This document shows, piece by piece, positions 1 to 18,934 of a stretch of DNA of 18,934 nt. The stretch is taken from positions 1-18,934 of the IMG/VR virus record IMGVR_UViG_2690316233_000002. One strand, 5' to 3'. The notes beneath the pieces are model-generated. The model was not told the DNA's origin. It did no database searches and saw nothing but the letters and a program-made list of their open reading frames with translations. Position 1 is the first letter of the stretch. Every line of letters begins with the position of its first letter. Source of the DNA: a virus. Its lineage: Duplodnaviria; Heunggongvirae; Uroviricota; Caudoviricetes. The position numbers and the translations under genes are program-made.

Positions 1-168
1 GCAGATGAGCTTGTCCATATGACTGCGAGAATTAACCGTGGTGAGGCGATCCCTGAACCAGTAAAACAACTTCCTGTCATGGGCGGTAGACCTCTAAATC
101 GTGCACAGGCTCTGGCGAAGATCGCAGAACTCAAAGCTAAGTTCGGACTGAAAGGAGCAAGTGTATGA
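1..168 (+). CDS. 3' end of upstream gene (5'-truncated by the window), probably a lambda P-like replication protein C-terminus
   Basis: Frame 1 is open from base 1 to TGA at 166-168 (...RPLNRAQALAKIAELKAKFGLKGASV*). The stop overlaps the ren ATG (ATGA). Position directly upstream of ren matches lambda gene P; product assignment is from position and recalled similarity only. Confidence 0.5.
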   Translation, partial: ADELVHMTARINRGEAIPEPVKQLPVMGGRPLNRAQALAKIAELKAKFGLKGASV

Positions 169-455
169 CGGGCAAAGAGGCAATTATTCATTACCTGGGG
201 ACGCATAATAGCTTCTGTGCGCCGGACGTTGCCGCGCTAACAGGCGCAACAGTAACCAGCATAAATCAGGCCGCGGCTAAAATGGCACGGGCAGGTCTTC
301 TGGTTATCGAAGGTAAGGTCTGGCGAACGGTGTATTACCGGTTTGCTACCAAGGAAGAACGGGAAGGAAAGATGAGCACGAACCTAATTTTTAAGGAGTG
401 TCGCCAGAGTGCCGCGATGAAACGGGTATTGGCGGTATATGGAGTTAAAAGATGA
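165..455 (+). CDS. ren: Ren protein (Rex-exclusion escape), lambda-type
   Basis: 96 aa, the lambda Ren length; sequence MTGKEAIIHYLGTHNSFCAPDVAALTG... recalled as near-identical to lambda Ren. Sits immediately upstream of the nin region. Confidence 0.85.
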   Translation: MTGKEAIIHYLGTHNSFCAPDVAALTGATVTSINQAAAKMARAGLLVIEGKVWRTVYYRFATKEEREGKMSTNLIFKECRQSAAMKRVLAVYGVKR

Positions 456-480
456 CCATCTACATCACTGAGCTTGTAAC

Positions 481-513
481 AGGCCTGCTGGTAATCGCAG
501 GCCTTTTTATTTG
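481..513 (+). terminator. Rho-independent terminator-like hairpin (tR2-like) between ren and the next gene
   Basis: Perfect 8-bp inverted repeat AGGCCTGC (481-488) / GCAGGCCT (497-504) with an 8-nt loop, followed by TTTTTATTT. Confidence 0.6.
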
Positions 514-527
514 GGGGAGAGTAAATC

Positions 528-734
528 GTGGTTGAGTTGATTTTTTCTGCATTGAGGATTCTCGGTGCTATGTGGATGGTGGCGACGTTCATTGTGGTTG
601 CCAGCAGTTTTGTCCGGCTGGTAGGCGAAGGTAAAGACCTGGTTGGTGTGCTTTTCGGTAGCATTTTCCTGTGGGTGATTATCGGTGTTATGCCTGTTGT
701 CGTAGCAAAAGTGGCGTGGCGTTTTGTGAGTTGA
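528..734 (+). CDS. Small hydrophobic membrane protein (two predicted TM helices), function unknown
   Basis: 68-codon ORF starting at GTG 528 (in-frame TAA at 522-524 precludes extension). G-rich Shine-Dalgarno GGGGGAGAG at 512-520. Two long hydrophobic stretches (LIFSALRILGAMWMVATFIVVASSFV and LVGVLFGSIFLWVIIGVMPVVVA). No lambda counterpart at this position. Confidence 0.55.
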   Translation: MVELIFSALRILGAMWMVATFIVVASSFVRLVGEGKDLVGVLFGSIFLWVIIGVMPVVVAKVAWRFVS

Positions 735-741
735 GGTAACG

Positions 742-1152
742 ATGAAGCAAACAATCTTCCTCCGAACTAAGCAACAACAGCAAGCCGCAATCAACGCCAT
801 CCTCGCAACACCACTCGATAAAGACAAGCCAGTTACCATCCGCATTACTGACTACAAGCGCAACCTTGACCAGAACGCAAAATTTCACGCGATGGTCGCA
901 GATATCGCTAGGCAAGTTCAGTGGCGCGGCAAATGGTTAAAACCAGAACAATGGAAGGTTTTGTTGATAAGCGGTCATGCAGTGGCAACGAAACAGGAAG
1001 CTGATGTTTTACCCGGGCTTGAAGGCGAATGCGTCAACATTCGCGAAAGCAGCGCGCAGATGAGTGTGAAGCGTATGGCAAGTCTGATTGAGTACACGAC
1101 AGCATGGGCTATTGGTCAGGGTGTCAGATTTACCGACAGGAGGTACGAATGA
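742..1152 (+). CDS. ninB: Recombination protein NinB (Orf family)
   Basis: 136 aa; recalled similarity to lambda NinB (RNLDQN...F/W motifs, comparable length). GAGG Shine-Dalgarno upstream of ATG 742. First gene of the nin cluster. Confidence 0.85.
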
Positions 1153-1331
1153 GACGACAGCGACGAAGTTTCACCGACATCATCTGCGAAAACTGCAAAT
1201 ACCTTCCAACGAAACGCTCCAGAAATAAACGCAAGCCAATCCCAAAAGAATCTGACGTAAAAACCTTCAACTACACGGCTCACCTGTGGGATATCCGGTG
1301 GCTTAGAGAACGTGCGAGGAAAACAAGGTGA
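1149..1331 (+). CDS. ninE: NinE protein
   Basis: 60 aa from ATG 1149 ([23 protein letters not shown]...), matching lambda orf-60/NinE in length and sequence as recalled. ATGA overlap with the ninB stop. The ORF-track start at 1104 is an upstream extension overlapping ninB. Confidence 0.8.
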
Positions 1332-1498
1332 TTGACCAAAATCGAAGTTACGAACAAGAAAGCGTCGAGCGAGCTTTAACGTGCGCTAACTGCGGTCAGA
1401 AGCTGCATGTGCTGGAAGTTCACGTGTGCTCCGATTGCTGCGCAGAACTGATGAGCGATCCGAATAGCTCAATGTACGAGGAAGAAGACGATGGCTAA
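1328..1498 (+). CDS. ninF: NinF protein
   Basis: 56-codon ORF from GTG 1328 ([56 protein letters not shown]), matching lambda orf-56/NinF with a CxxC...CxxCC zinc-ribbon-like motif. GTGA overlap with the ninE stop. Below the 60-aa ORF-track cutoff. Confidence 0.75.
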
Positions 1499-2096
1499 AC
1501 CAGCGCGAAGGAAATGCAAAATATGCAAGGAATGGTTTCACCCGGCATTCTCAAATCAGTGGTGGTGCTGCCCGGAACACGGAACTCAATTAGCACTCGA
1601 ACGACGAAGTAAAGAACGCGAAAAAGCGGAAAAAGCAGCAGAGAAGAAACGACGACGAGATGAACAGAAACAGAAAGATAAACTTAAGATTCGAAAACTC
1701 GCCTTAAAGCCCCGCAGTTACTGGATTAAGCAAGCCCAACAAGCCGTAAACGCCTTCATCAGAGAAAGAGACCGCGACTTACCATGTATCTCGTGCGGAA
1801 CGCTCACGTCTGCTCAGTGGGATGCCGGACATTACCGGACAACTGCTGCGGCACCTCAACTCCGATTTGATGAACGCAATATTCACAAGCAATGCGTGGT
1901 GTGCAACCAGCACAAAAGCGGAAATCTCGTTCCGTATCGCGTCGAACTGATTAATCGCATCGGGCAGGAAGCAGTAGACGAAATCGAATCAAACCATAAC
2001 CGCCATCGCTGGACTATCGAAGAGTGCAAGGCGATCAAGGCAGAGTACCAACAGAAACTCAAAGACCTGCGAAATAGCAGAAGTGAGGCCGCATGA
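1491..2096 (+). CDS. ninG: Recombination protein NinG (Rap-like structure-specific endonuclease)
   Basis: 201 aa (lambda NinG is 204 aa). Cys-rich N-terminus ([10 protein letters not shown]...WWCCPEH) and HNH-like C-terminal motifs (CISCG...[11 protein letters not shown]). Sits in the ninF-ninH interval. Confidence 0.9.
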
Positions 2097-2299
2097 CGTT
2101 CTCAGTAAAAACCATTCCAGACATGCTCGTTGAAGCATACGGAAACCAGACAGAAGTAGCACGCAGACTGAAATGTAGTCGCGGCACGGTCAGAAAATAC
2201 GTTGATGATAAAGACGGGAAAATGCACGCCATCGTCAACTACGTTCTTATGGTTCATCGCGGATGGAGTGAAAGAGATGCGCTATTACGAAAGAATTGA
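2093..2299 (+). CDS. ninH: NinH protein
   Basis: 68 aa, the lambda NinH length; recalled near-identity ([36 protein letters not shown]...). ATGA overlap with the ninG stop. Confidence 0.9.
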
Positions 2300-2948
2300 T
2301 GGCAGCAAATACCGAAATATTTGGGTAGTTGGCGATCTGCACGGATGCTACACGAACCTGATGAAAAAACTGGAGACGATAGGATTCGACACCAAAAAAG
2401 ACCTGCTTATCTCGGTTGGCGATTTGGTCGATCGCGGTACAGAGAACGTCGAATGTCTGGAATTAATCACATTCCCCTGGTTCCGAGCTGTACGTGGAAA
2501 CCATGAGCAAATGATGATTGATGGCTTATCAGAGCGCGGAAACGTCAATCACTGGATGCTTAATGGCGGTGGCTGGTTCTTTAATCTCGATTACGACAAA
2601 GAAATTCTGGCTAAAGCTCTTGCCCATAAAGCAGAAGAACTTCCGTTAATCATCGAACTGGTGAGCAAAGATAAAAAATACGTCATCTGCCACGCCGATT
2701 ATCCCTGTGATGAATACGAGTTTGGAAAGCCAGTTGATCATCAGCAGGTAATCTGGAACCGCGAACGAATCAGCAACTCACAAGACGGGATCGTGAAAGA
2801 AATCAAAGGCGCGGACACGTTCATCTTTGGTCATACGCCAGCAGTGAAACCACTCAAGTTTGCCAACCAGATGTATATCGATACTAGGGCAGTGTTCTGC
2901 GGAAATCTCACATTGATTCAGGTACAGGGAGAAGGCGCATGGGCATAA
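2277..2948 (+). CDS. ninI: Ser/Thr protein phosphatase NinI (lambda PPase family)
   Basis: Calcineurin-like metallophosphatase motifs GDLHG, GDLVDRG, GNHE. Start chosen at the internal ATG 2277 ([23 protein letters not shown]...) to match the lambda PPase N-terminus; the ORF-track start at 2202 would overlap ninH extensively. Confidence 0.9.
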
Positions 2949-3457
2949 GAGAACTAAACCTCACCAAAGAGCAGCATGAGTGGCTGAATGGCTGGCTTGA
3001 ACTGTGGGGCGCATGGGTTTATTCAGGTCGTCTGGAAAAGCGCATGAGCAGCGTAATAGCGAAGTTCATGGAGAGCGTAGAGCCGGGAAGAGTTATGACA
3101 AGGCCAATGTGCAATGATGATGATGGAATGTTGATTTCTCAGGTCGTCGATTCCGTTATGTACATTGACAAAAAAGCCTTTGGCATCCTCCTCAGCTACT
3201 ACGCTCATGGTTCATCTAAGCGAGCAATTGCATCCTACTATCACGCGACTGCAAAGCCACGCAAGATGTGTGGACGTGGTGGCGAGGGATGGAGAAAACC
3301 TTCACTGGCAACCTGTAGAAACGAAATTGACGACATCCTGAAAGCGTCGTTATTTGTTTTGTACCAGCCAATGCAAAATGCTTTCAAAATGCGTAAACGT
3401 GTTGAGAAAGTTAAGCATGTTGCTGTTAAAAGCCTTGACATGCAATTATCCATTTAG
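2939..3457 (+). CDS. Q: Late-gene antiterminator Q, non-lambda type (phage 21/82/QuuD-like family)
   Basis: 172 aa with an ELWGAW...MCNDDDGM signature recalled from QuuD-type Q proteins. Lies between ninI and the late promoter and lysis genes. GGAGAAGG Shine-Dalgarno upstream; start overlaps the ninI stop. Confidence 0.75.
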
Positions 3458-3464
3458 CCATAAT
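3435..3464 (+). promoter_or_regulatory. Candidate late promoter pR' (sigma70 -35/-10), with the presumed Q-utilisation region
   Basis: TTGACA at 3435-3440, 18-nt spacer, CATAAT at 3459-3464, straddling the Q stop codon (3455-3457) as in lambdoid pR'. Confidence 0.5.
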
Positions 3465-3474
3465 TAGAAGGTAA

Positions 3475-3520
3475 GCTGCCGTTAGTGACTCTTAAGTTGC
3501 AACGGTGGCTTTTTTGTTTG
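3475..3520 (+). terminator. Candidate Q-regulated terminator (tR'-like): imperfect hairpin plus T-tract
   Basis: GCCGTT (3478-3483) pairs with AACGG(TG)GC (3501-3509) with one bulge, followed by CTTTTTTGTTTG (3510-3520), about 40 nt downstream of the predicted pR' start. Stem is imperfect. Confidence 0.35.
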
Positions 3521-3593
3521 CACAACAGGTAAGAGCATTGAACCCGCAGACCTCGCGGAATTGGCGAAAGGTGCCGCGCAGTGCTCTTATCGT

Positions 3594-3723
3594 TGTGGTG
3601 AAGCTCAATGGCGAGCTAGCAGATAGGCGATAGTGAAAATACTAGTCATGTAGCTGACCGCCGCGCGTACTGCAATCGGCAGCGCACCGATGGAAGCCGG
3701 TTCGATTCCGGCCGCCACAACCC
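3594..3723 (+). ncRNA. tRNA-like element: canonical T-arm, anticodon-arm-like hairpin and acceptor pairing, with a ~58 nt insertion; not a standard tRNA
   Basis: T-arm GCCGG-TTCGATT-CCGGC (3696-3712). Anticodon-like arm ATCGG-CAGCGCA-CCGAT (3675-3691). Acceptor pairing TGTGGTG (3594-3600) with CGCCACA (3713-3719). D-arm-like GCTC-AATGGC-GAGC (3603-3616). No encoded CCA (ACCC follows); position 33 is A rather than U. Confidence 0.3.
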
Positions 3724-3943
3724 AAACTGAGCCGTAGCCACTGGCTATCCTAGATTCATCAGTGATAGTTATGCTGCGGCCTTCTACACATGACCTTCGT
3801 GAAAGCGGGTAGCAAGAGGCTGCGCTAACAACCTCCTGCCGTTTTGCCCGTGCATATCGGTCACGAACAAATCTGATTACTAAACACAGTAGCCTGGATT
3901 TGTTCTATCAGTAATCGACCTTATTCCTAATTAAATAGAGCAA

Positions 3944-3974
3944 ATCCCCTTATTGGGGGTAAGACATGAAGATG
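3944..3974 (+). promoter_or_regulatory. S-gene translational control region: sdi-like stem-loop and dual start codons (Met1-Lys-Met3)
   Basis: Hairpin CCCC-TTATT-GGGG at 3946-3958 immediately upstream of ATG 3966 and ATG 3972 (ATGAAGATG), the lambda S107/S105 dual-start arrangement. Confidence 0.7.
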
Positions 3975-4289
3975 CCAGAAAAACATGACCTGTTGGCCGC
4001 CATTCTCGCGGCAAAGGAACAAGGCATCGGGGCAATCCTTGCGTTTGCAATGGCGTACCTTCGCGGCAGATATAATGGCGGTGCGTTTACAAAAACAGTA
4101 ATCGACGCAACGATGTGCGCCATTATCGCCTGGTTCATTCGTGACCTTCTCGACTTCGCCGGACTAAGTAGCAATCTCGCTTATATAACGAGCGTGTTCA
4201 TCGGCTATATCGGCACTGACTCGATTGGTTCGCTTATCAAACGCTTCGCTGCTAAAAAAGCCGGAGTAGAAGATGGTGGAAATCAATAA
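3966..4289 (+). CDS. S: Holin/antiholin S (class I, lambda S type)
   Basis: 107 aa beginning [34 protein letters not shown]..., recalled as near-identical to lambda S. Three hydrophobic TM segments; directly precedes the endolysin gene. Confidence 0.95.
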
Positions 4290-4749
4290 TCAACGTAAGG
4301 CGTTCCTCGATATGCTGGCGTGGTCGGAGGGAACTGATAACGGACGTCAGAAAACCAGAAATCATGGTTATGACGTCATTGTAGGCGGAGAGCTATTCAC
4401 TGATTACTCCGATCACCCTCGCAAACTTGTCACGCTAAACCCAAAACTCAAATCAACAGCAGCCGGACGTTACCAGCTTCTTTCCCGTTGGTGGGATGCC
4501 TATCGCAAGCAGCTCGGACTGAAAGACTTCTCTCCGAAAAGCCAGGACGCTGTGGCACTGCAACAGATTAAAGAGCGTGGCGCTTTACCGATGATTGATC
4601 GCGGTGATATCCGTCAGGCTATCGACCGTTGCAGCAATATCTGGGCTTCACTGCCGGGCGCTGGTTATGGTCAGTTCGAGCATAAGGCTGACAGCCTGAT
4701 TGCAAAATTCAAAGAAGCGGGTGGAACGGTCAGAGAGATTGAGGTATGA
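4273..4749 (+). CDS. R: Endolysin R (lambda-type lytic transglycosylase)
   Basis: 158 aa, [35 protein letters not shown]..., recalled as near-identical to lambda R. Start overlaps the S 3' end. Confidence 0.95.
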
Positions 4750-5183
4750 GCAGAGTAACCGCGATTATCTCCGCTCTGGTTATCTGCATCATCGTCTGTC
4801 TGTCATGGGCTGTTAATCATTACCGTGATAACGCCATGACCTACAAAGAGCAGCGCGATAAAGCCACATCCATCATCGCTGATATGCAGAAGCGTCAACG
4901 TGATGTAGCTGAACTCGATGCCAGATACACAAAGGAGCTTGCTGATGCTAACGCGACTATCGAAAGTCTCCGTGCTGATGTTTCTGCTGGGCGTAAGCGC
5001 CTGCAGGTCGCCGCCACCTGTGCAAAGTCAACGACCGGAGCCAGCGGCATGGGCGATGGAGAAAGCCCAAGACTTACAGCAGATGCTGAACTCAATTATT
5101 ACCGTCTCCGAAGTGGAATCGACAGGATAACCGCGCAGGTTAACTACCTGCAGGAATACATCAGGACGCAATGCCTTCGATGA
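4746..5183 (+). CDS. Rz: Inner-membrane spanin subunit Rz (i-spanin)
   Basis: 145 aa with an N-terminal TM helix ([18 protein letters not shown]) and a coiled-coil periplasmic domain. ATGA overlap with the R stop; N-terminus matches lambda Rz as recalled. Confidence 0.9.
4945..5130 (+). CDS. Rz1: Outer-membrane lipoprotein spanin subunit Rz1 (o-spanin), embedded in the +1 frame of Rz
   Basis: ORF wholly inside Rz in another frame. Signal peptide with lipobox-like LGVSAC followed by a proline-rich stretch ([12 protein letters not shown]), parallel to lambda Rz1. Start chosen at Met10 of the track ORF (4918); ATG 4978 is an alternative. Confidence 0.75.
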
Positions 5184-5583
5184 TAGCGATAATTTTACTC
5201 ATCATCCTTCACATCTGGCTCTGTAGACAGGGTGGTGATCACTTCTGGAGTGAATCCAGATTAAACATCTCATTGCTGATGCTTGATATTGAGCATCTGG
5301 CGCGCGGTAAGGGGCTGCGTTGAGATAAGAGCCAGTTCATTACAAAGCCTATCTACTGGTGGGCTTGATAATGAAACCGGAATTTATTCTGGGTAACCAG
5401 TTACGGCAGTACCGCGAAACAACCCAAGCCAGTAAGTGGGGAAATAACACTGGCAGCCACTGAAAGATGAACCTCCTGCCTTATGGCAAAAAAGATTCTT
5501 TGTGGTGGCGGACTGATGGAAAGACATCGGTTATTGCAGAGGCCATTCAATGAGTGGTCTCGACAATGGCTTATACCCTACAC

Positions 5584-5609
5584 GGGATAACTTAACTGAT
5601 ATCCCTTTT
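5584..5609 (+). terminator. Hairpin plus T-tract (weak intrinsic-terminator-like structure) upstream of the moron ORFs
   Basis: GGGATA (5584-5589) / TATCCC (5600-5605) with a 10-nt loop, followed by TTTT (5606-5609). AT-rich stem, so probably weak. Confidence 0.3.
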
Positions 5610-5630
5610 AACGGATAAACGGAGCCAACA

Positions 5631-5873
5631 ATGGCAGAGATTATTCCCATGACTGAAGAACAGAAATTCAAGTTAGAAATTTACCGACTGCTATCTAAGA
5701 ACAATTCAGCGGCAGAGGAAGCGTTTGCATTCATTGGTGCTGACCAGTTGAAACTGGAATTGTTCAAGTTGCACTACAACGATGGCGGTGCAAATCCAGA
5801 CTTCACATCTCGCACTATCGAAGCGGTGCGTAAATCGAAGGAAGCGTTAGACCTGTTCACTACCGGAGGGTAA
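5631..5873 (+). CDS. Hypothetical protein (80 aa), moron between lysis and packaging modules
   Basis: ORF with GGAG Shine-Dalgarno about 9 nt upstream of ATG 5631; 3-nt gap to the next ORF. No recognisable motif. Confidence 0.55.
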   Translation: MAEIIPMTEEQKFKLEIYRLLSKNNSAAEEAFAFIGADQLKLELFKLHYNDGGANPDFTSRTIEAVRKSKEALDLFTTGG

Positions 5874-5876
5874 GAG

Positions 5877-6164
5877 ATGACTGAACAAGAAATGCCGAGA
5901 TACCAGTGCCACAAAAAAGTTCGCGCCCTGAAGATTGGCTCTATAGAACATAAGCCAAACCCAGATCAGTCTGGTAAGACTGGCTCTTCTAGTTATGGGG
6001 CAATTATTCATCCGGATGATAAGAAATACGCAGCATTTGATGTTAGCGCGGAATATATCTGTAAGCACCGACCAATGTCTGGAGGCTATTACGTTGTCTA
6101 TGAGGATGGATATGAATCATATTCTCCTGCTGAGGTATTTGAGTCTGGATATTCAAAATTATAG
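5877..6164 (+). CDS. Hypothetical protein (95 aa), moron between lysis and packaging modules
   Basis: ORF with GGAGGG upstream of ATG 5877 and a Tyr/Gly-rich C-terminus. No recognisable catalytic motif. Confidence 0.6.
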   Translation: MTEQEMPRYQCHKKVRALKIGSIEHKPNPDQSGKTGSSSYGAIIHPDDKKYAAFDVSAEYICKHRPMSGGYYVVYEDGYESYSPAEVFESGYSKL

Positions 6165-6173
6165 GAATCCTCT

Positions 6174-6353
6174 ATGACAAGCGTCGTTGATCTTGGTAAG
6201 GAGAAGAAATTCCCAATTACTCAAGAGCTATACGAGAGGCTGGAAAGCGTCATTCATGATTACGATGGTGAAATCAGTTTATGCGAGGCGATTGGCACAC
6301 TTGAATTGCTGAAGCAGTCACTGATTGAAAGCGCGAAAGAGTCCTTAACCTGA
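6174..6353 (+). CDS. Hypothetical small protein (59 aa)
   Basis: ATG 6174 preceded by AGGA; translation MTSVVDLGKEKKFPITQELYERLESVIHDYDGEISLCEAIGTLELLKQSLIESAKESLT. Fills the gap before the small terminase gene; below the ORF-track cutoff. Confidence 0.4.
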   Translation: MTSVVDLGKEKKFPITQELYERLESVIHDYDGEISLCEAIGTLELLKQSLIESAKESLT

Positions 6354-6376
6354 AATAACAACTAAGTGAGATGAAT

Positions 6377-6799
6377 ATGGCGACTGAACCAAAAGCTGGT
6401 CGCCCCTCTGATTATATGCCGGAGGTGGCTGACGATATCTGCTCGTTGCTTTCTTCTGGCGAAAGTTTGCTGAAAGTATGTAAGCGTCCTGGTATGCCGG
6501 ATAAGTCCACTGTTTTCCGCTGGTTGGCAAAGCATGAGGATTTTCGCGACAAGTACGCGAAGGCAACTGAGGCACGAGCTGATTCTATTTTCGAAGAGAT
6601 ATTCGAAATTGCTGACAATGCGATTCCAGATGCTGCTGAGGTGGCAAAGGCAAGACTTCGCGTTGATACCCGCAAATGGGCGCTGGCCCGAATGAATCCC
6701 CGTAAGTATGGCGACAAGGTAACTAACGAGCTTGTCGGTAAGGACGGCGGCGCAATCCAGATTGAAACATCACCGATGAGCACTCTATTCGGAAAATGA
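6377..6799 (+). CDS. Terminase small subunit (Sf6 gp1-like)
   Basis: 140 aa from ATG 6377 (MATEPKAGRPSDYMPEVADDICSLL...), recalled as closely matching the Sf6 small terminase. ATG 6371 is an alternative start. Immediately precedes and overlaps the large terminase gene (ATGA). Confidence 0.8.
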   Translation: MATEPKAGRPSDYMPEVADDICSLLSSGESLLKVCKRPGMPDKSTVFRWLAKHEDFRDKYAKATEARADSIFEEIFEIADNAIPDAAEVAKARLRVDTRKWALARMNPRKYGDKVTNELVGKDGGAIQIETSPMSTLFGK

Positions 6800-8208
6800 C
6801 CTCGATTAATCCTATCTTTGAACCGTTCATTGAGGCGCATCGCTACAAAGTCGCCAAAGGCGGTCGAGGTAGCGGTAAGTCATGGGCAATTGCGAGGCTG
6901 CTTGTTGAAGCGGCGCGTCGGCAGCCTGTGCGTATTCTCTGCGCTCGTGAACTGCAAAACAGTATCAGCGATTCGGTAATCCGGTTGCTTGAAGATACCA
7001 TCGAGCGTGAAGGGTATTCGGCTGAGTTTGAAATTCAGCGTTCAATGATTCGTCATCTCGGATCGAATGCTGAGTTCATGTTCTACGGCATCAAAAACAA
7101 CCCGACGAAGATTAAATCGCTCGAAGGCATTGATATCTGCTGGGTGGAAGAAGCGGAAGCGGTAACGAAGGAATCATGGGATATCCTGATACCAACCATC
7201 CGTAAGCCGTTCTCTGAAATATGGGTGAGCTTTAACCCGAAAAACATCCTCGACGATACCTATCAGCGATTCGTCGTAAACCCTCCTGATGATATTTGTC
7301 TGCTGACGGTGAACTACACCGACAACCCGCACTTTCCTGAAGTTCTCCGCCTGGAGATGGAAGAGTGTAAACGCAGAAATCCGACCCTGTATCGTCACAT
7401 CTGGCTTGGTGAGCCAGTGAGCGCAAGTGATATGGCAATCATCAAACGTGAATGGCTTGAAGCTGCTACCGATGCGCACAAGAAACTCGGATGGAAAGCG
7501 AAAGGCGCGGTTGTTTCTGCGCATGACCCATCAGACACAGGGCCAGATGCTAAAGGTTACGCATCGCGTCACGGTTCGGTAGTTAAGCGCATTGCCGAAG
7601 GCCTGCTGATGGACATCAACGAGGGCGCTGACTGGGCTACTTCTCTGGCGATTGAAGACGGCGCTGACCACTACTTGTGGGATGGTGATGGTGTTGGTGC
7701 AGGTCTACGCAGACAGACAACGGAAGCGTTCTCCGGTAAGAAAATCACCGCCACGATGTTCAAGGGCAGCGAATCGCCATTCGATGAGGATGCGCCTTAT
7801 CAGGCCGGAGCATGGGCTGATGAAGTCGTGCAGGGCGACAACGTTCGCACTATTGGCGATGTATTCCGCAATAAGCGAGCGCAATTCTATTACGCGCTGG
7901 CTGACAGGCTGTATCTGACATATCGGGCGGTTGTTCACGGTGAGTATGCAGACCCCGACGACATGCTGAGTTTCGACAAAGAAGCGATAGGCGAGAAGAT
8001 GCTGGAGAAGCTGTTTGCAGAACTGACGCAGATTCAGCGCAAATTCAATAACAACGGGAAGCTTGAGCTAATGACTAAGGTCGAAATGAAGCAGAAGCTC
8101 GGTATTCCATCTCCTAACCTGGCTGATGCGTTGATGATGTGTATGCATTGCCCGGCATTGGCCCGCGAAGAAACAGAAATATACGTTCCCTCATCCTCCG
8201 GTTGGTAA
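6796..8208 (+). CDS. Terminase large subunit (headful-packaging ATPase/nuclease type)
   Basis: 470 aa with Walker A KGGRGSGKS and Walker B-like ICWVEEAE; length equals the Sf6 large terminase as recalled. Confidence 0.95.
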   Translation: MTSINPIFEPFIEAHRYKVAKGGRGSGKSWAIARLLVEAARRQPVRILCARELQNSISDSVIRLLEDTIEREGYSAEFEIQRSMIRHLGSNAEFMFYGIKNNPTKIKSLEGIDICWVEEAEAVTKESWDILIPTIRKPFSEIWVSFNPKNILDDTYQRFVVNPPDDICLLTVNYTDNPHFPEVLRLEMEECKRRNPTLYRHIWLGEPVSASDMAIIKREWLEAATDAHKKLGWKAKGAVVSAHDPSDTGPDAKGYASRHGSVVKRIAEGLLMDINEGADWATSLAIEDGADHYLWDGDGVGAGLRRQTTEAFSGKKITATMFKGSESPFDEDAPYQAGAWADEVVQGDNVRTIGDVFRNKRAQFYYALADRLYLTYRAVVHGEYADPDDMLSFDKEAIGEKMLEKLFAELTQIQRKFNNNGKLELMTKVEMKQKLGIPSPNLADALMMCMHCPALAREETEIYVPSSSGW

Positions 8209-8210
8209 AC

Positions 8211-10337
8211 ATGGCAGAGACATTAGAGAAAAAACATGAGCGGATCATGCTCAGGTTTGACCGCGCCTATTCTCCACAGCAGGAAGTGCGCGAAAAGTGC
8301 ATTGAAGCTACGAGGTTTGCTCGTGTCCCCGGAGGTCAATGGGAAGGAGCAACGGCGGCTGGAACTAAGCTTGATGAGCAGTTCGAGAAGTATCCTAAGT
8401 TTGAAATCAATAAGGTAGCAACTGAACTTAACCGCATCATTGCAGAATACCGCAATAACAGAATCACCGTTAAGTTTCGTCCTGGTGACAGAGAGGCAAG
8501 CGAAGAGTTAGCCAATAAATTAAATGGTCTGTTCCGTGCTGACTACGAAGAAACTGATGGCGGTGAGGCTTGCGATAATGCATTTGACGACGCTGCTACT
8601 GGTGGTTTCGGTTGCTTCCGTTTGACGTCGATGCTGGTCAATGAATACGACCCCATGGACGATCGTCAGCGTATTGCTATTGAACCGATATACGACCCGT
8701 CGCGCTCTGTGTGGTTTGACCCTGACGCTAAGAAATACGACAAATCTGACGCGTTGTGGGCGTTCTGCATGTATTCGTTGTCACCTGAAAAATATGAGGC
8801 TGAATACGGAAAGAAACCTCCTGCTTCTCTGGACGTAACGTCTATGACCAGTTGGGAATATGACTGGTTTGATGCAGATGTTATTTACATAGCGAAGTAT
8901 TACGAAGTTCGTAAAGAGTCTGTTGATGTTATCAGTTATCGACATCCAATCACTGGAGAGATTGCAACATACGACAGTGATCAGGTCGAAGATATTGAAG
9001 ATGAACTGGCAATAGCTGGATTTCAGGAAGTTGCAAGGCGCTCAGTGAAGCGCCGTCGTGTGTATGTATCAGTAGTGGATGGTGATGGTTTCCTTGAGAA
9101 ACCTCGACGTATTCCTGGTGAGCATATCCCCCTCATCCCGGTTTATGGAAAACGCTGGTTCATTGATGACATTGAGCGTGTCGAAGGGCACATTGCAAAA
9201 GCAATGGATCCACAGCGTTTGTACAACCTTCAGGTTTCAATGCTGGCTGATACTGCAGCACAAGACCCCGGTCAGATCCCTATAGTTGGCATGGAGCAAA
9301 TTCGTGGACTTGAGAAGCACTGGGAGGCTCGCAACAAGAAACGCCCAGCGTTCTTGCCGTTGCGCGAAGTGAGAGATAAATCTGGCAACATTATCGCTGG
9401 AGCTACCCCGGCAGGATATACACAGCCTGCGGTTATGAATCAGGCATTGGCTGCATTACTACAGCAAACCAGTGCTGATATTCAGGAGGTTACAGGCGGC
9501 AGTCAGGCCATGCAGCAGATGCCAAGTAATATTGCTCAGGAAACGGTTAACAACTTGATGAACAGAGCAGATATGGCTTCGTTTATCTATCTGGACAATA
9601 TGGCGAAAAGTCTTAAACGCGCTGGTGAAGTATGGCTGTCAATGGCGCGTGAAGTGTACGGTTCAGAACGTGAAGTGCGCATCGTTAACGAAGATGGAAG
9701 TGATGATATCGCTGTCCTGAGCGCACAGGTTGTTGACAGGCAAACAGGGGCTGTTGTTGCGTTAAATGACCTTTCTGTCGGTCGATACGATGTGACGGTT
9801 GATGTTGGACCAAGCTACACAGCACGACGTGATGCAACGGTTTCTGTACTGACAAATGTCCTTAGCTCTATGCTTCCAACAGACCCAATGCGCCCGGCAA
9901 TTCAGGGTATTATTCTGGACAATATCGATGGCGAAGGCCTTGATGACTTCAAAGAGTACAACCGAAACCAACTGCTGATATCTGGTATTGCAAAACCACG
10001 CAATGAGAAAGAGCAGCAGATTGTTCAACAGGCGCAAATGGCAGCACAAAGCCAGCCAAATCCTGAAATGGTTCTCGCTCAGGCGCAAATGGTAGCAGCG
10101 CAGGCAGAAGCGCAAAAAGCAACTAACGAAACTGCTCAAACTCAAATCAAAGCATTTACTGCCCAGCAGGATGCGATGGAGAGTCAGGCAAACACTGTCT
10201 ATAAACTGGCTCAAGCCAGAAACATCGATGACAAAGCAGTGATGGAGGCAATACGCCTTCTGAAAGATGTCGCCGAGTCACAACAACAGCAATTCCAGTC
10301 ACCACCACAGTCACCGGCAGACTTAATGCCGAGTTAA
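8211..10337 (+). CDS. Portal protein (P22 gp1 / Sf6 gp3-like)
   Basis: 708 aa from ATG 8211, directly after the terminase TAA (8206-8208). Conserved blocks recalled from the P22 portal (KRRRVY, GEHIPLIPV) and a long Q/A-rich helical C-terminus. The ORF-track start at 8139 overlaps the terminase gene. Confidence 0.9.
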   Translation: MAETLEKKHERIMLRFDRAYSPQQEVREKCIEATRFARVPGGQWEGATAAGTKLDEQFEKYPKFEINKVATELNRIIAEYRNNRITVKFRPGDREASEELANKLNGLFRADYEETDGGEACDNAFDDAATGGFGCFRLTSMLVNEYDPMDDRQRIAIEPIYDPSRSVWFDPDAKKYDKSDALWAFCMYSLSPEKYEAEYGKKPPASLDVTSMTSWEYDWFDADVIYIAKYYEVRKESVDVISYRHPITGEIATYDSDQVEDIEDELAIAGFQEVARRSVKRRRVYVSVVDGDGFLEKPRRIPGEHIPLIPVYGKRWFIDDIERVEGHIAKAMDPQRLYNLQVSMLADTAAQDPGQIPIVGMEQIRGLEKHWEARNKKRPAFLPLREVRDKSGNIIAGATPAGYTQPAVMNQALAALLQQTSADIQEVTGGSQAMQQMPSNIAQETVNNLMNRADMASFIYLDNMAKSLKRAGEVWLSMAREVYGSEREVRIVNEDGSDDIAVLSAQVVDRQTGAVVALNDLSVGRYDVTVDVGPSYTARRDATVSVLTNVLSSMLPTDPMRPAIQGIILDNIDGEGLDDFKEYNRNQLLISGIAKPRNEKEQQIVQQAQMAAQSQPNPEMVLAQAQMVAAQAEAQKATNETAQTQIKAFTAQQDAMESQANTVYKLAQARNIDDKAVMEAIRLLKDVAESQQQQFQSPPQSPADLMPS

Positions 10338-10350
10338 CCAGGAGTAATCA

Positions 10351-11235
10351 ATGGAAAACGAACTGATCATCGACGGTCAGGTTATTGACCTGTCTGAAAC
10401 ACAGGAAAATGCAGAAGAAACCATCATCCAAACAGAGTCACAGCCTGAGAATGAAAGCCAGGATGACAACGGTAAAGAGGTGGAAACTGAGCCTGAAAAA
10501 ACCGAAGAGACACCAGAAGATTACGCCTTGCGTATTGGTGATGAAGAAATTCAGCTTAACGCTGACGATGATGATCACATTGACGGGCAACCTGCACCGC
10601 AATGGGTGAAAGATCTTCGCAAAGGCTTCAAAGAAACACAGAAAGAAAACCGTGAGTTGCGCCGCCAGCTTGAGGAAGCATTAGCCAAGCCAGCGGAACA
10701 TCAGCAACCACAACCAGACGCTATTCCACCAAAACCGACTCTTGAGTCGTGTGATTATGACGAACAGGCGTTTGAACAGGCATTGACTGATTGGCATGAG
10801 AAAAAAGGCCGTGTCGAACAGCAGCAGCAACAAAAACTACGTCAGCAACAGGAATACCAACAGCGTTTCCAGCAAAGGGTAGAAGCGCATAAACAACGGG
10901 CAGCCAAACTTCCTGTGAAAGATTATCAGGAAATGGAAGCCATTGTTCTTAGTGAGCTACCACCAATTCAGCAGGAAATCATCATTCACTGTGCAGACGA
11001 AGGCTCTGAACTACTCGCCTATGGCTTAGGTAAGAGCCAGCAATTACGCCAGCGTGTAGCCGCTGAGACAGATCCAATTCGCGCAGCATTCCTCTTGGGG
11101 CAGATTAGCAAACAGGTAAGCCTTGCTCCAAAACCAAAGAAAGCCATCAAGCCAGAGCCGGAAGTACGTGGTGGCGGTGCTGATGCGAAACAAGACGAAT
11201 TCAACAAATTATGCCCCGGCGCAAAAATCGAATAA
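10351..11235 (+). CDS. Scaffolding protein (P22 gp8-like)
   Basis: 294 aa between portal and coat genes. Highly acidic N-terminus, Gln/Glu-rich coiled-coil centre and a helical basic C-terminal region. AGGAG Shine-Dalgarno upstream. Confidence 0.75.
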   Translation: MENELIIDGQVIDLSETQENAEETIIQTESQPENESQDDNGKEVETEPEKTEETPEDYALRIGDEEIQLNADDDDHIDGQPAPQWVKDLRKGFKETQKENRELRRQLEEALAKPAEHQQPQPDAIPPKPTLESCDYDEQAFEQALTDWHEKKGRVEQQQQQKLRQQQEYQQRFQQRVEAHKQRAAKLPVKDYQEMEAIVLSELPPIQQEIIIHCADEGSELLAYGLGKSQQLRQRVAAETDPIRAAFLLGQISKQVSLAPKPKKAIKPEPEVRGGGADAKQDEFNKLCPGAKIE

Positions 11236-11246
11236 GGAAAAGATAA

Positions 11247-12518
11247 ATGCCTAACAATCTCGACAGTAACGTCAGTCAAATCGTTCTGAAAAAATTCCTT
11301 CCGGGTTTTATGTCAGATTTAGTTCTGGCGAAAACCGTAGACCGTCAGTTGCTGGCAGGTGAAATCAACTCCAGCACTGGCGATAGCGTTAGCTTTAAAC
11401 GTCCGCATCAATTCTCATCCCTCCGTACTCCCACTGGTGATATTTCAGGGCAAAATAAAAACAACCTGATCTCAGGTAAAGCTACGGGGCGTGTAGGTAA
11501 CTACATCACTGTTGCTGTTGAATATCAGCAACTGGAGGAAGCGATCAAGCTTAACCAGCTGGAAGAAATTCTCGCGCCGGTTCGCCAGCGAATCGTTACC
11601 GACCTTGAAACAGAGCTTGCTCACTTCATGATGAATAACGGTGCGTTGTCACTTGGTAGCCCCAATACTCCAATCACCAAATGGTCTGATGTTGCGCAGA
11701 CGGCATCTTTCCTGAAAGACCTCGGCGTTAATGAAGGTGAAAACTATGCTGTAATGGATCCATGGTCTGCACAGCGACTTGCTGATGCGCAGACTGGTTT
11801 GCATGCTTCAGATCAATTGGTTCGTACTGCATGGGAGAACGCACAGATCCCAACCAATTTTGGCGGCATTCGCGCACTGATGTCTAATGGGCTTGCCTCT
11901 CGTACGCAGGGGGCATTTGGCGGAACACTGACAGTCAAAACACAGCCAACTGTTACCTATAACGCAGTTAAAGACTCATACCAGTTCACTGTAACATTGA
12001 CCGGAGCGACAGCCAGCGTTACAGGTTTTCTGAAAGCTGGTGATCAGGTCAAATTCACCAATACCTACTGGCTGCAACAGCAGACCAAACAGGCGTTGTA
12101 TAACGGAGCCACACCAATTAGCTTCACTGCAACGGTTACTGCTGATGCTAATTCAGACAGCAGTGGCGATGTGACGGTTACGCTTTCTGGTGTTCCGATT
12201 TATGACACTACAAACCCGCAGTACAACTCTGTAAGTCGTCAGGTAGAGGCAGGCGATGCCGTATCTGTAGTAGGCACTGCTAGCCAGACAATGAAGCCAA
12301 ACCTGTTCTATAACAAGTTCTTCTGTGGACTTGGCTCTATCCCACTGCCGAAACTGCACAGTATTGATTCTGCTGTTGCAACATATGAAGGTTTCTCCAT
12401 CCGCGTACATAAATACGCAGATGGCGATGCCAACGTGCAAAAAATGCGCTTCGACTTACTGCCTGCATATGTGTGCTTTAACCCTCACATGGGCGGTCAG
12501 TTCTTCGGTAATCCGTAA
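11247..12518 (+). CDS. Major capsid (coat) protein (Sf6 gp5-like)
   Basis: 423 aa, the recalled Sf6 coat length, directly after the scaffold gene with AAGGAAAAG upstream. Followed by a strong terminator, as expected for the most abundant late product. Confidence 0.8.
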   Translation: MPNNLDSNVSQIVLKKFLPGFMSDLVLAKTVDRQLLAGEINSSTGDSVSFKRPHQFSSLRTPTGDISGQNKNNLISGKATGRVGNYITVAVEYQQLEEAIKLNQLEEILAPVRQRIVTDLETELAHFMMNNGALSLGSPNTPITKWSDVAQTASFLKDLGVNEGENYAVMDPWSAQRLADAQTGLHASDQLVRTAWENAQIPTNFGGIRALMSNGLASRTQGAFGGTLTVKTQPTVTYNAVKDSYQFTVTLTGATASVTGFLKAGDQVKFTNTYWLQQQTKQALYNGATPISFTATVTADANSDSSGDVTVTLSGVPIYDTTNPQYNSVSRQVEAGDAVSVVGTASQTMKPNLFYNKFFCGLGSIPLPKLHSIDSAVATYEGFSIRVHKYADGDANVQKMRFDLLPAYVCFNPHMGGQFFGNP

Positions 12519-12522
12519 TAAC

Positions 12523-12550
12523 AAGGGGCTTACGCCCCTTTTATGTTTTA
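12523..12550 (+). terminator. Rho-independent terminator downstream of the coat gene
   Basis: AGGGGC (12524-12529) / GCCCCT (12534-12539) GC-rich stem with a 4-nt loop, followed by TTTTATGTTTT. Confidence 0.8.
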
Positions 12551-12560
12551 AGGAAACAAT

Positions 12561-12746
12561 ATGGATCGGATGAGTGTATTCCTTGCCGCAGATAACGAAT
12601 CCGGGCATGTACAGGCCGTTATCGCAGAAAAAGACTTCCAGTTTTTCGAAAGGTTGGGCTTTGTTGCCTCAGTTGATGAATTGAAACCGACCAGTAAGCG
12701 AGGTCGTAAGGCGGCAGACAATGGCAACAGTACTGACAAAGGGTGA
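12561..12746 (+). CDS. Hypothetical small protein (61 aa) following the coat gene
   Basis: ORF with AAGGA upstream of ATG 12561; overlaps the next gene by 26 nt. No motif recognised. Confidence 0.4.
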   Translation: MDRMSVFLAADNESGHVQAVIAEKDFQFFERLGFVASVDELKPTSKRGRKAADNGNSTDKG

Positions 12747-13203
12747 GATCGTCCTTTTTGCGCTTCGTAAGTTTGCTATTGCTTCTAATGCATCGCTGAC
12801 TGATGTTGAGCCGCAATCAATTGAAGATGGTGTAAATGATCTGGAAGATATGATGTCCGAGTGGATGATTAACCCCGGCGACATTGGTTACGCTTTCGCA
12901 ACTGGAGATGATCAGCCATTACCAGATGATGAGTCAGGTCTTCCAAGAAAATACAAACACGCAGTAGGCTATCAGTTATTGCTGAGAATGCTATCTGATT
13001 ACAGCCTTGAACCAACTCAGCAAGTTCTCAGTAACGCCCAACGCTCATATGATGCCTTGATGACCGACACTCTGGTTGTTCCTTCAATGCGACGACGTGG
13101 AGATTTTCCTGTAGGGCAGGGTAATAAATATGACGTGTTCACATCTGACCGATATTATCCAGGCGATCTCCCTCTGATTGATGGCGATATCCCAAACGCA
13201 TAG
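12721..13203 (+). CDS. Head-completion / tail accessory protein (P22 gp4-like)
   Basis: 160 aa; the N-terminus (TKGEIVLFALRKFAIASNASLTDVEPQS...DLEDMMSEW) matches the P22 gp4 N-terminus as recalled. Correct position after the coat gene. Confidence 0.75.
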   Translation: MATVLTKGEIVLFALRKFAIASNASLTDVEPQSIEDGVNDLEDMMSEWMINPGDIGYAFATGDDQPLPDDESGLPRKYKHAVGYQLLLRMLSDYSLEPTQQVLSNAQRSYDALMTDTLVVPSMRRRGDFPVGQGNKYDVFTSDRYYPGDLPLIDGDIPNA

Positions 13204-13211
13204 GTGAATAA

Positions 13212-14630
13212 ATGCCTATTCAGCAACTTCCGCTTATGAAAGGTGTCGGCAAAGACTTTAGAAACGCCGACTATATCGACTATCTGCCAGTGAATATGTT
13301 GGCTACACCCAAAGAAATCCTGAACAGCAGCGGATATCTTCGCTCATTCCCGGGCATTGCCAAACGTTCTGATGTGAACGGCGTATCGCGCGGAGTTGAG
13401 TACAACATGGCGCAGAGTGCTGTTTATCGCGTGTGTGGCGGCAAGCTGTACAAAGGAGAAAGTGAAGTCGGTGATGTTGCCGGAAGTGGTCGTGTATCAA
13501 TGGCGCATGGTCGGACATCTCAGGCTGTAGGCGTTAATGGCCAACTGGTCGAGTATCGTTATGATGGCACGGTTAAAACAGTCTCAAACTGGCCTACAGA
13601 CAGAGGATTCACACAGTACGAGTTAGGTTCAGTTCGCGACATTACGCGCTTACGTGGGCGTTATGCGTGGTCAAAAGACGGAACTGATTCATGGTTTATC
13701 ACTGACCTTGAAGACGAATCGCATCCTGACCGCTACAGCGCACAATATCGCGCAGAATCGCAGCCGGACGGCATCATCGGTATCGGCACATGGCGAGACT
13801 TCATCGTCTGCTTTGGTTCATCGACGATTGAATATTTCTCCCTGACGGGTGCAACCACCGTTGGTGCTGCTTTGTATGTCGCACAGCCATCTCTTATGGT
13901 GCAGAAAGGCATTGCCGGGACTTACTGCAAAACGCCGTTTGCTGATTCGTATGCGTTCATCAGCAATCCGGCAAATGGTGCGCCGTCTGTATACATCATC
14001 GGCTCCGGTCAGGTATCACCAATCGCTAGCGCGAGCATTGAGAAAATTCTTCGCTCCTACACTGCTGATGAACTGGCTGATGGCGTGATGGAATCGTTGC
14101 GCTTTGATGCTCATGAGTTGCTGATTATCCACCTGCCGCGCCACGTCCTCGTGTATGACGCATCTTCAAGCGCCAATGGTCCGCAATGGTGTGTACTGAA
14201 AACAGGCCTGTATGACGATGTGTACCGCGCTATCGACTTCATTTACGAAGGCAATCAGATAACGTGCGGCGATAAGCTGGAATCGGTGACCGGGAAATTG
14301 CAGTTCGATATCAGTAGTCAGTATGGGCTTCAACAGGAACACCTGCTGTTTACTCCACTCTTCAAAGCAGATAACGCCAGATGCTTTGATCTGGAGGTGG
14401 AATCATCGACGGGTGTTGCTCAGTACGCTGACCGCCTGTTCCTCTCTGCAACCACTGACGGCATAAATTACGGTCGTGAGCAGATGATTGAGCAGAATGA
14501 ACCGTTCGTTTACGACAAACGCGTTTTGTGGAAGCGTGTCGGGCGAATCAGGAAAAATGTCGGCTTCAAACTTCGCGTTATCACGAAGTCACCTGTCACT
14601 CTGTCTGGCGCTCAGATAAGGATTGAGTAA
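13212..14630 (+). CDS. Head-completion / tail accessory protein (P22 gp10-like)
   Basis: 472 aa, the P22 gp10 length, positioned between the gp4-like and tail-needle genes. Assignment is mainly by size and synteny. Confidence 0.7.
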
Positions 14631-15933: not shown

Positions 15934-15935
15934 CC

Positions 15936-16628: not shown

Positions 16629-16637
16629 GGGGTAATC

Positions 16638-17969: not shown

Positions 17970-18934
<965 letters not shown>

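Follow-up and report, generated by a model that had tools for sequence, protein, structure and literature searches.

What do three small, tightly spaced genes contribute to a P22-like virus when they lie between its lysis and packaging modules, and which of them belong together? The question is raised by the stretch of DNA analysed here (the window), 18,934 nucleotides (nt) from a virus of the Caudoviricetes (IMG/VR record IMGVR_UViG_2690316233_000002, positions 1 to 18,934), in which three open reading frames (ORFs) follow one another:

5631-5873, + strand: ORF1, 80 amino acids (aa), ATG start (ORF list and sequence)
5877-6164, + strand: ORF2, 95 aa, ATG start (ORF list and sequence)
6162-6176, + strand: ORF2/ORF3 junction, with the TAG stop, a 9-nt spacer and the next ATG in one reading frame
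6174-6353, + strand: ORF3, 59 aa, ATG start (ORF list and sequence)

An earlier note made from the letters alone (hereafter the sequence-only reading) had described three small ORFs with good ribosome-binding sites at this position, and this description stands: coordinates and sizes are exact, and Shine-Dalgarno-like motifs (GGAG, GGAGG and AGGA) lie 7-10 nt 5' of the three starts. The spacers measure 3 nt (GAG) between ORF1 and ORF2, and 9 nt between ORF2 and ORF3. Database searches returned numerous homologues of each ORF. Pairwise dN/dS values range from 0.14 to 0.26 for ORF1 and from 0.24 to 0.40 for ORF3, while comparison of ORF2 with its homologue in phage Dewey gave a dN of 0.21 at saturated dS. 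As judged by these comparisons, all three ORFs are genuine genes under purifying selection.

The explanation we favour, and consider probable though well short of certain, is that the cluster would be the current filling of a hypervariable late-operon slot in a P22-like (Sf6/HK620-type) prophage. The three genes would be translated from a late read-through transcript, and ORF2 would have been inserted precisely between ORF1 and ORF3; prophages of E. coli and Citrobacter would carry it together with ORF3 as a unit of two genes.

Two catalogued genes and an insertion between them

ORF1 and ORF3 are hypothetical genes that have been catalogued before. Although the sequence-only reading had recognised no motif in any of the three ORFs, ORF1 carries the signature of Pfam family DUF2560 (PF10834) at 126.3 bits against a cut-off of 25 (E 5.5e-37, profile positions 1-72 of 72), and it also matches phrog_571 (E 3.8e-35). 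By homology, it is a full-length member of this family and the counterpart of P22 Orf80, HK620 HkbM, and Sf6 gp67, which it resembles in length and position, with 76-78% identity (76% to P22 Orf80) and no structural difference. The allele is divergent, being 99% identical to those of phage N7 and an ST131 prophage, 81% to that of E. coli 7/2, and ~77% to those of P22 and HK620. ORF3 matches phrog_3546 over its full length (E 4.6e-41, positions 1-59 of 59) and is, on the same kind of evidence, a full-length counterpart of P22 Orf59c, HK620 HkbN, and Sf6 gp68; it is 86-89% identical to the P22 and HK620 proteins and likewise lies directly 5' of the small terminase gene. These identities and the gene order agree with the annotation of HK620, Sf6, P22, and phage P6.

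In P22, HK620 and Sf6, the counterparts of ORF1 and ORF3 are adjacent, and the stop codon of the former overlaps with the GTG at which the latter begins; the pair is located directly 5' of the small terminase gene 3. An alignment of the DNA of the window, HK620, P22, Sf6, and Dewey reveals ORF2 as a clean insertion of ~300 bp between the orf80 stop and the orf59c start. ORF2 is accordingly placed outside the ancestral pair by sequence alignment, and ORF1-ORF3 is the older arrangement. The insertion has left its marks on both neighbours: because of it, the last two residues of ORF1 differ from those in P22 and HK620, and the first ~7 codons of ORF3 are altered (MTSVVDL, compared to MSRVINL in the P22 Orf59c/HkbN family). 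ORF3 begins with ATG, 9 nt after ORF2, whereas the P22 and HK620 genes use the GTG that overlaps the orf80 stop; and ORF3 is linked to ORF2 in the window, whereas Orf59c and HkbN are linked directly to the counterpart of ORF1.

The insertion appears to have spread. ORF2 shows 100% nucleotide identity in the E. coli 7/2 and ST131 prophages, and the 7/2 ORF1 is only 81% identical to that of the window. Since ORF2 is identical beside divergent ORF1 alleles, a recombination boundary is to be placed at the ORF1/ORF2 junction (window compared to locus L019, 3082-3324; loci and proteins retrieved from databases are given by our L and P numbers where needed). This mosaic pattern indicates recent horizontal spread of ORF2, as far as sequence identity can tell. 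The cluster is paired with two kinds of small terminase: ST131 has the P22 type, and both the window and E. coli 7/2 have the Sf6 type. The G+C content dips slightly, to 0.42-0.45, with ORF2 at 0.42. The full three-gene arrangement, defined as at least 80% of the query covered, is found in 49 of 5426 complete E. coli genomes, and partial matches in 2551 of them.

Each of the three genes also has a distribution of its own. Homologues of ORF1 occur in 140 phage records, of ORF3 in 45, and of ORF2 in 14, two of which are P22-like (Dewey and CurroJimenez_Bas106). ORF1 and ORF3 are combined in P22, HK620, Sf6, and Hafnia prophages; ORF1 and ORF2 without ORF3 in Dewey; and ORF2 and ORF3 with a truncated ORF1 in CurroJimenez_Bas106. 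ORF1 stands alone in phage N7, and homologues of ORF2 are found without ORF1 or ORF3 in Morganella, Ralstonia, and Pseudomonas. As any one of the genes can be present without the others in viable phages or prophages, ORF1 and ORF2 are not an obligate pair.

ORF2 and ORF3 are the better-linked unit in E. coli and Citrobacter, a linkage that is, by sequence, real but lineage-specific. In a Citrobacter prophage, the DUF2560 protein is 45%, the ORF2 homologue 75%, and the ORF3 homologue ~70% identical to the proteins of the window, and the junction (TATAGGAATCNNCTATG) has the same architecture in Citrobacter loci L030 and L031 (TAG, 9 nt, ATG, in frame; L030 2489-2503). The genes of five database proteins (P0001-P0004, P0006) have GAG or CAG in place of the TAG, and the products are ORF2-ORF3 fusions of 158 aa. 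Such fusions are rare: each of the five clusters holds one sequence, whereas the cluster of free-standing 95-aa ORF2 proteins holds 275. In other ORF2 lineages (73-76% identity), the next genes encode a p49-like HExxH protein and a basic protein of 44-48 aa, or the next gene encodes an HslV-like peptidase homologue. The p49-like proteins of these lineages (phrog_1365) are 34-39% identical to p49 of phage ST64T. C- or N-terminal extensions of distant ORF2 homologues (P0034, P0036, P0054) were considered as ORF3-like and rejected, given that the ORF3 profile scored them at E of at least 0.05 in a 120-sequence set. Profiles of ORF2 and ORF1 had no match among 148 representatives of the ORF3 family.

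The interval between Rz and the small terminase gene is, as its contents in relatives show, an accessory-gene hotspot of P22-like phages. Among the relatives examined, it holds Rha and KilA-N regulators, the host-modulating pid, Sf6 gp66/N4 gp49-type genes (gp49_66), HNH, DUF551, DUF2560, the ORF2 family, the p49-like HExxH and HslV-like proteins, the small basic protein, Orf59c, and Dec. In P22-like prophages of Citrobacter and Hafnia, a Tad2-like gene (PF11195, the anti-Thoeris family) has its place between Rz and DUF2560 (L030 1386-1664; L031 416-694; L033 1912-2190). The accessory slot between lysis and packaging genes proposed in the sequence-only reading is thus borne out by relatives that fill it with Tad2-like, pid, rha, or dec genes, and the accessory nature of the genes themselves by genetics. 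P22 carrying a cassette in place of orf25, pid, and part of orf80 is fully functional, growing and lysogenising (bioRxiv 10.1101/2023.08.15.553423), and deletion of orf25-orf80 from P22 likewise yields viable phage (PMC11016777). In P22, orf80 is reported to be needed neither for lytic growth nor for lysogeny. Together with natural phages that are missing one gene or another, these P22 strains show that the three genes are individually dispensable.

How are these genes expressed? A consensus scan of positions 5100-6500 detected no sigma-70-like promoter and no terminator on the + strand in or around the cluster; Rfam matched nothing in 5000-6600, and the whole window is devoid of tRNA genes. 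As the genes lack a promoter and terminator of their own, they are to be regarded as read-through members of the late operon rather than as classical morons. ORF2 resembles lambdoid morons (in the sense of Hendrix and Juhala) in being an extra gene between otherwise adjacent genes, with lower G+C content and recent horizontal spread. Lambdoid morons, however, have their own promoter and terminator and are expressed from the prophage, whereas ORF2 has neither signal and is embedded in the late operon by spacers of 3 and 9 nt, so that its expression would be late, along with that of the structural genes.

ORF1 is predicted to be a small four-helix protein, mildly acidic (isoelectric point 5.1), and its AlphaFold2 model (pLDDT, the model's per-residue confidence score, of 80) places helices at residues 9-20, 25-35, 39-51, and 58-77. 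A fold search gave no informative match, with Foldseek against BFVD returning only uncharacterised phage proteins (best E 8.5e-4, TM-score 0.85), and word search confined the family to Enterobacterales prophages, at 58% identity or more. ORF3 is acidic (isoelectric point 4.5), with a predicted beta-alpha-beta-alpha order (pLDDT 66-72) and the family core motif FP..EL..RL...I.EYdG.iS..eA.G.LE..K. Its family, narrow by word search, comprises 167 clusters (50% identity) at E of 1e-3 or below in a HMMER profile search. Most members are stand-alone proteins of 55-60 aa, and some have N-terminal extensions, including Cys-rich, zinc-ribbon-like ones. No member of the family matches Pfam, and a profile search of the PDB gave only noise (ankyrin-consensus look-alikes). 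Single-sequence searches of the PDB with ORF1, ORF2, and ORF3 gave no match. A Providencia phage carries a distant member of the ORF3 family in its nin region, and Erwinia phage AH03 has one at its left end, so the family is not tied to packaging. No functional study of DUF2560, hkbM/hkbN, or orf59c was found in the literature searched.

ORF2 and the foot of the decoration protein Dec

ORF2 matched no Pfam family in profile searches. It belongs to phrog_11049, and a word search returned 444 homologues (median length 97 aa), which stem from prophages of Enterobacterales and from phages of Ralstonia, Pseudomonas, and Salmonella. Residues P7, Y9, K13, G70, V73, Y75, G78, Y79, S81, P84, F88, G91, and Y92 are invariant in the family. 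Modelled within a natural ORF2-ORF3 fusion (mean pLDDT 61.8), the core of ORF2 is beta-rich, with strands at residues 14-25, 41-46, 54-57, and 71-75, and helices at 58-64 and 85-95. The fusion model contains no confident packing between the two domains and, being of low confidence, is silent on an interaction of ORF2 with ORF3.

The best structural match of ORF2 in the PDB is Dec, the decoration protein of phages L and ST64T (PDB 6e3c; phrog_3018). When 85 ORF2 homologues were compared with ST64T Dec using hhalign, the two were aligned at 88-90% probability (E 1.4-2.9e-6) over 81-82 columns, equating ORF2 residues 6-95 with Dec residues 10-92; a three-sequence profile of the Dec family gave 88.9% against the ORF2 family. 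In a shuffle control, Dec 1-98 scored 39.1 and none of 300 shuffles reached this score (mean 11.6, standard deviation 2.8, maximum 26.8). Dec itself weakly matches the phrog_11049 group of ORF2 (E 0.012), while ORF2 found no match to the Dec group phrog_3018 at E of 1 or below. The order of strands and helices is common to both proteins, as is the motif GGY....G...Y.S...FE..Y. The published elements of Dec (beta1 21-32, beta3 47-50, alphaOB 52-59, beta4 63-68, beta5 73-77, and a helix at 78-86; PMC6449081) coincide in the hhalign register with the strands and helices predicted for ORF2. ORF2 would therefore contain a counterpart of the N-terminal OB-fold of Dec (residues 12-89), and probably shares ancestry, as a remote homologue, with this capsid-binding foot.

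The relationship extends to the position of the genes. In ST64T, the order is DUF2560, p49, dec, and small terminase; because dec sits between DUF2560 and the small terminase gene, it occupies the same slot in a P22-like late operon as ORF2. The two proteins differ at their C-termini: the trimeric, tail-fibre-like spike of Dec (residues ~93-134) is absent from ORF2, which ends at the equivalent of Dec residue 92. Relative to Dec, ORF2 also has an 11-residue insertion after beta1 and invariant Cys and His residues of its own, namely C11, H12, and H64 (window positions ~5907-5912 and 6066-6068), which are nearly invariant among the 85 family members and absent from Dec. These residues could form a metal-binding or catalytic site, to judge from their conservation. 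The families differ in breadth as well, that of ORF2 being wide (Enterobacterales, Ralstonia, and Pseudomonas phages) and full-length Dec being limited to Salmonella P22-like phages (66 phage records, all at 90% identity or more). The spike segment is common to the tail fibres of many phages, and the pattern fits an origin of Dec in which an ORF2-like foot was joined to a captured piece of a fibre.

Does one protein simply replace the other? Two Enterobacter prophages (L024 and L026) encode both an ORF2 homologue and a Dec homologue of 202-203 aa (L024 4542-5150; L026 4037-4648), the latter located just before the small terminase position. The foot of these Dec homologues is 53-58% identical to that of Dec, and their C-terminal region is different from that of Dec, longer, Ala/Thr-rich, and with a coiled-coil-like end. 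Given that homologues of ORF2 and Dec coexist in these genomes, they are not simple functional alternatives.

The genomic surroundings of ORF2 homologues are diverse. Ralstonia phage GP4 has its homologue (gp05) in the head module, flanked by the portal and major head genes; in Salmonella phage PCSE1, it is part of a replication/nucleotide-metabolism block; in Pseudomonas phage Dolphis, it is found among small early-type genes; and in a Phytobacter prophage, it belongs to a two-gene cassette on the opposite strand. High conservation across phages with unrelated capsids argues, from sequence, for a conserved partner and not for a capsid surface. ORF2 is thus best described, from its homology, as Dec-like in fold and not as a demonstrated decoration protein. 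The sequence-only reading had held that a profile or structural match to a virion accessory protein would speak against an accessory module; such a relationship emerged for one of the three proteins, ORF2, through Dec, which is itself a non-essential accessory protein. As a separate observation, one ORF2 homologue (P0053) carries at residues 99-159 a fused domain related to crAss001_48 (PF21825, E 1.7e-16).

As far as the literature consulted shows, two aspects are new here: the existence of a large family without a Pfam entry that is related to the Dec foot and devoid of a spike, and the finding that this family shares its genomic slot, and sometimes a genome, with Dec.

Weighing explanations of the cluster

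What, then, might the proteins do? For ORF2, we lean slightly towards a soluble, late-expressed OB-fold module that would bind a conserved partner, and less towards a capsid cement of the Dec type. Such a partner, which might be a ligand, nucleic acid, or protein, is suggested by a nearly invariant surface of ORF2 that is rich in aromatic residues and includes Cys11, His12, and His64. The most likely role of ORF1 and ORF3 would be that of small accessory proteins that bind other proteins and modulate processes of the host or the phage at a late stage of infection. Several points weigh against these proposals. The most conserved motif of ORF2 (residues 78-95) falls into a run with pLDDT below 50 (78-108). 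The hhalign probability stays under 95%, and a HMMER profile search of PDB sequences scores Dec at E 1.1, which is noise level, although it ranks second. Homologues of ORF2 often adjoin head or terminase genes, and one of them is annotated as 'capsid decoration protein'; to judge by these neighbours, a role in the virion would also fit. Finally, the binding-module mechanism of ORF2 is one that we infer, and the mechanisms suggested for ORF1 and ORF3 are derived from size, charge, predicted fold, and dispensability.

Overlapping with this preferred reading is the idea that at least one of the three proteins serves as an anti-defence or host-takeover factor, for example as an inhibitor or a sponge for signal molecules, which is expressed late to protect the progeny or the next cycle. 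We rate this as a tentative and rather unlikely alternative. The same interval harbours the Tad2-like gene in related prophages and the host-modulating pid in P22, and the Tad2-like neighbours mark it as a site of anti-defence cargo. All three genes are small, non-essential, independently assorting, and horizontally spread; unrelated phages carry members of the ORF2 and ORF3 families among their early or accessory genes, and the predicted OB-fold of ORF2 with its invariant aromatic surface would suit the binding of a ligand or nucleic acid. However, profile searches matched none of the three ORFs to a known defence or anti-defence family (such as Tad2, PF11195), no phenotype has been reported, fold searches matched no known inhibitor, and factors required early in infection are not usually expressed from the late operon with no promoter of their own.

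Alternatively, ORF2 could be a genuine capsid decoration or cement protein, acting alone or with ORF3 as an oligomerisation head, supplied in trans, by read-through of the TAG, or by fusion. Homology to the capsid-binding domain of Dec, the shared slot, co-expression with head genes in the late operon, and the location of the GP4 homologue would all be expected of such a protein. Moreover, the conserved in-frame ORF2/ORF3 junction and the 158-aa fusions mirror the layout of Dec, in which a foot is followed by a C-terminal domain, and C-terminal extensions of other kinds are present in 6 of ~120 members of the ORF2 family. We nevertheless regard this explanation as improbable. The spike is needed for trimerisation of Dec and for its stable binding to the capsid, and the OB domain alone (Dec1-98) is monomeric and fails to bind P22 virions (PMC11398494); ORF2 is spike-less. 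The Dec residues K30, Y31, Y49, Y71, and E73, identified as coat contacts by mutagenesis or modelling (PMC6449081), are not kept and correspond in the hhalign register to E24, H25, D55, D77, and Y79 of ORF2, a mapping that at ~27% identity may slip by one or two positions. These residues vary among true Dec homologues too, which makes their absence from ORF2 weak evidence. Conservation of the ORF2 family over unrelated capsids and hosts would be unexpected for a protein binding the capsid surface, and the coexistence with true Dec homologues, as well as the replication and early contexts in other phages, also speak against a decorating function. The only proteins reported in the reconstruction of the GP4 capsid are gp2, the major capsid protein, and gp1, a cement protein (PMC9698820). 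As to the contribution of ORF3, its profile fails on the C-terminal tails of distant ORF2 homologues, and ORF2 often occurs without ORF3.

An evolutionary variant of this proposal goes further. Here, the ORF2 family would represent the free-standing ancestor module of Dec, the latter having arisen from the foot and a captured tail-fibre spike, and ORF2 and ORF3 would form a split decoration system. ORF3 would provide the head for oligomerisation, as a separate protein in trans or by a low level of read-through at the conserved in-frame TAG, which would generate a 158-aa foot-plus-head protein such as the one that some natural variants encode directly. We consider this scenario quite doubtful.

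A highly doubtful explanation is that ORF1, ORF3, or both are packaging accessory factors that cooperate with the small terminase in pac recognition or terminase assembly. In P22, HK620, Sf6, and many prophages, the small terminase gene directly follows them, and the stop of the ORF1 counterpart overlaps the start of the ORF3 counterpart in P22, HK620, and Sf6, as such a role would predict. However, the genes are found beside several types of small terminase (PF20901 Sf6_terminase, PF16677 GP3_package, and unannotated genes in the terminase position), ORF3 is missing from many P22-like phages (45 records compared to 140 with ORF1), members of its family reside in nin or early regions elsewhere, and P22 without intact orf80 grows normally (bioRxiv 10.1101/2023.08.15.553423).

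That ORF1/ORF2, as the sequence-only reading had speculated for the 80/95-aa pair, or ORF2/ORF3 constitute a toxin-antitoxin or inhibitor-partner module can be dismissed as extremely improbable, since the tight spacing (3 and 9 nt), the small sizes, and the co-divergence of ORF2 and ORF3 in E. coli and Citrobacter are opposed by the absence of toxin, antitoxin, and defence domains from all three ORFs (Pfam, NCBIfam, PADLOC, and PHROGs), by the secondary insertion of ORF2, by the lack of an autonomous promoter and of obligate pairing (ORF1 in 140 phage records, an ORF2 homologue in only two P22-like records, and ORF2 homologues without a nearby DUF2560 gene), by the viability of combinations that are missing single genes (P22, Dewey, Bas106, and N7), and by P22 with disrupted orf80 and intact orf59c, which lysogenises normally (bioRxiv 10.1101/2023.08.15.553423).

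Neighbours of the cluster and implications for the slot

The boundaries of the slot in the window are given by the following features:

3966-5183: lambda-type holin, endolysin and Rz/Rz1 genes, upstream of the cluster
5171-5323, + strand: homologue of Sf6 gene 65, 50 aa, hydrophobic, overlapping the end of Rz (tblastn, 96% identity to Sf6 gp65)
5403-5589, no strand: conserved non-coding segment 5' of ORF1 (blastn against P22)
6371-6799, + strand: small terminase subunit of the Sf6/HK620 type (HK620 annotation and alignment), the downstream boundary of the slot

The 50-aa gene at 5171-5323 is probably that of a small membrane protein, and annotations of E. coli prophages and of phage Bas106 include it as well. 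The non-coding segment is 93% identical over 189 nt (blastn) to a stretch of P22 just downstream of rha, although rha, orf25-pid, and KilA-N are missing from the window, and contains a terminator-like hairpin on the minus strand (5472-5493). A 35-aa ORF at 5483-5590 is in some relatives fused in frame to DUF2560 gene calls (P0197; the 118-aa gene of ST64T). Searches with tblastn detected no pid, rha, KilA-N, hkbK, or Sf6 gp66 gene in the window, whereas relatives carry such genes upstream of ORF1; nor is there a Tad2-like gene in the window, unlike in the Citrobacter and Hafnia relatives.

Downstream, the small terminase probably starts at 6377, by homology to gene 3 of HK620, and the equivalent 140-aa small terminase genes of related prophages carry PF20901 Sf6_terminase. 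The large terminase and portal genes lie beyond it, and the coat protein is encoded at 11247-12518. The longest ORF call for the portal (8139-10337, 732 aa) begins with GTG and shares 70 nt with the end of the large terminase gene; comparison with HK620 indicates that the true start is probably an internal ATG just past the terminase stop.

Two further residents of the slot in other genomes deserve mention. The HExxH protein (115-129 aa; phrog_1365, no Pfam family) is encoded directly after ORF2 homologues in 8 of the 9 loci retrieved (for example, L021 3300-3671, L024 3300-3650, and L027 3301-3648), and the ninth locus, L022, has an 85-aa truncated call of the same gene. In ST64T, this gene (L011 2747-3136) directly precedes dec, and the window has no HExxH gene. 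The protein could, from its motif and position, be a metallopeptidase-like partner of the OB-fold proteins of the slot. The HslV/proteasome-like protein (162-169 aa; phrog_1040), with an N-terminal MTT motif, is encoded at L014 5410-5919, L024 3897-4406, and, in Dewey, L004 3276-3764. Its gene adjoins ORF2 homologues in the Pectobacterium and Dewey loci and belongs to the same slot in locus L024 of Enterobacter.

Removal of the toxin-antitoxin reading shifts attention to virion association, to the ligand of ORF2, and to the relationship between ORF2 and ORF3. DUF2560/Orf80 and Orf59c are the commonest uncharacterised residents of the hotspot, and sequence from the cluster region is present, at least in part, in about half of the complete E. 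coli genomes. Dec has been treated as an isolated, structurally novel decoration protein of a few Salmonella phages, and its OB-fold foot now appears to be part of a much larger family of stand-alone phage proteins of ~97 aa. This relationship suggests an origin of Dec from a foot and a tail-fibre-type spike, and the ORF2 family may provide natural variants for the engineering of capsid display.

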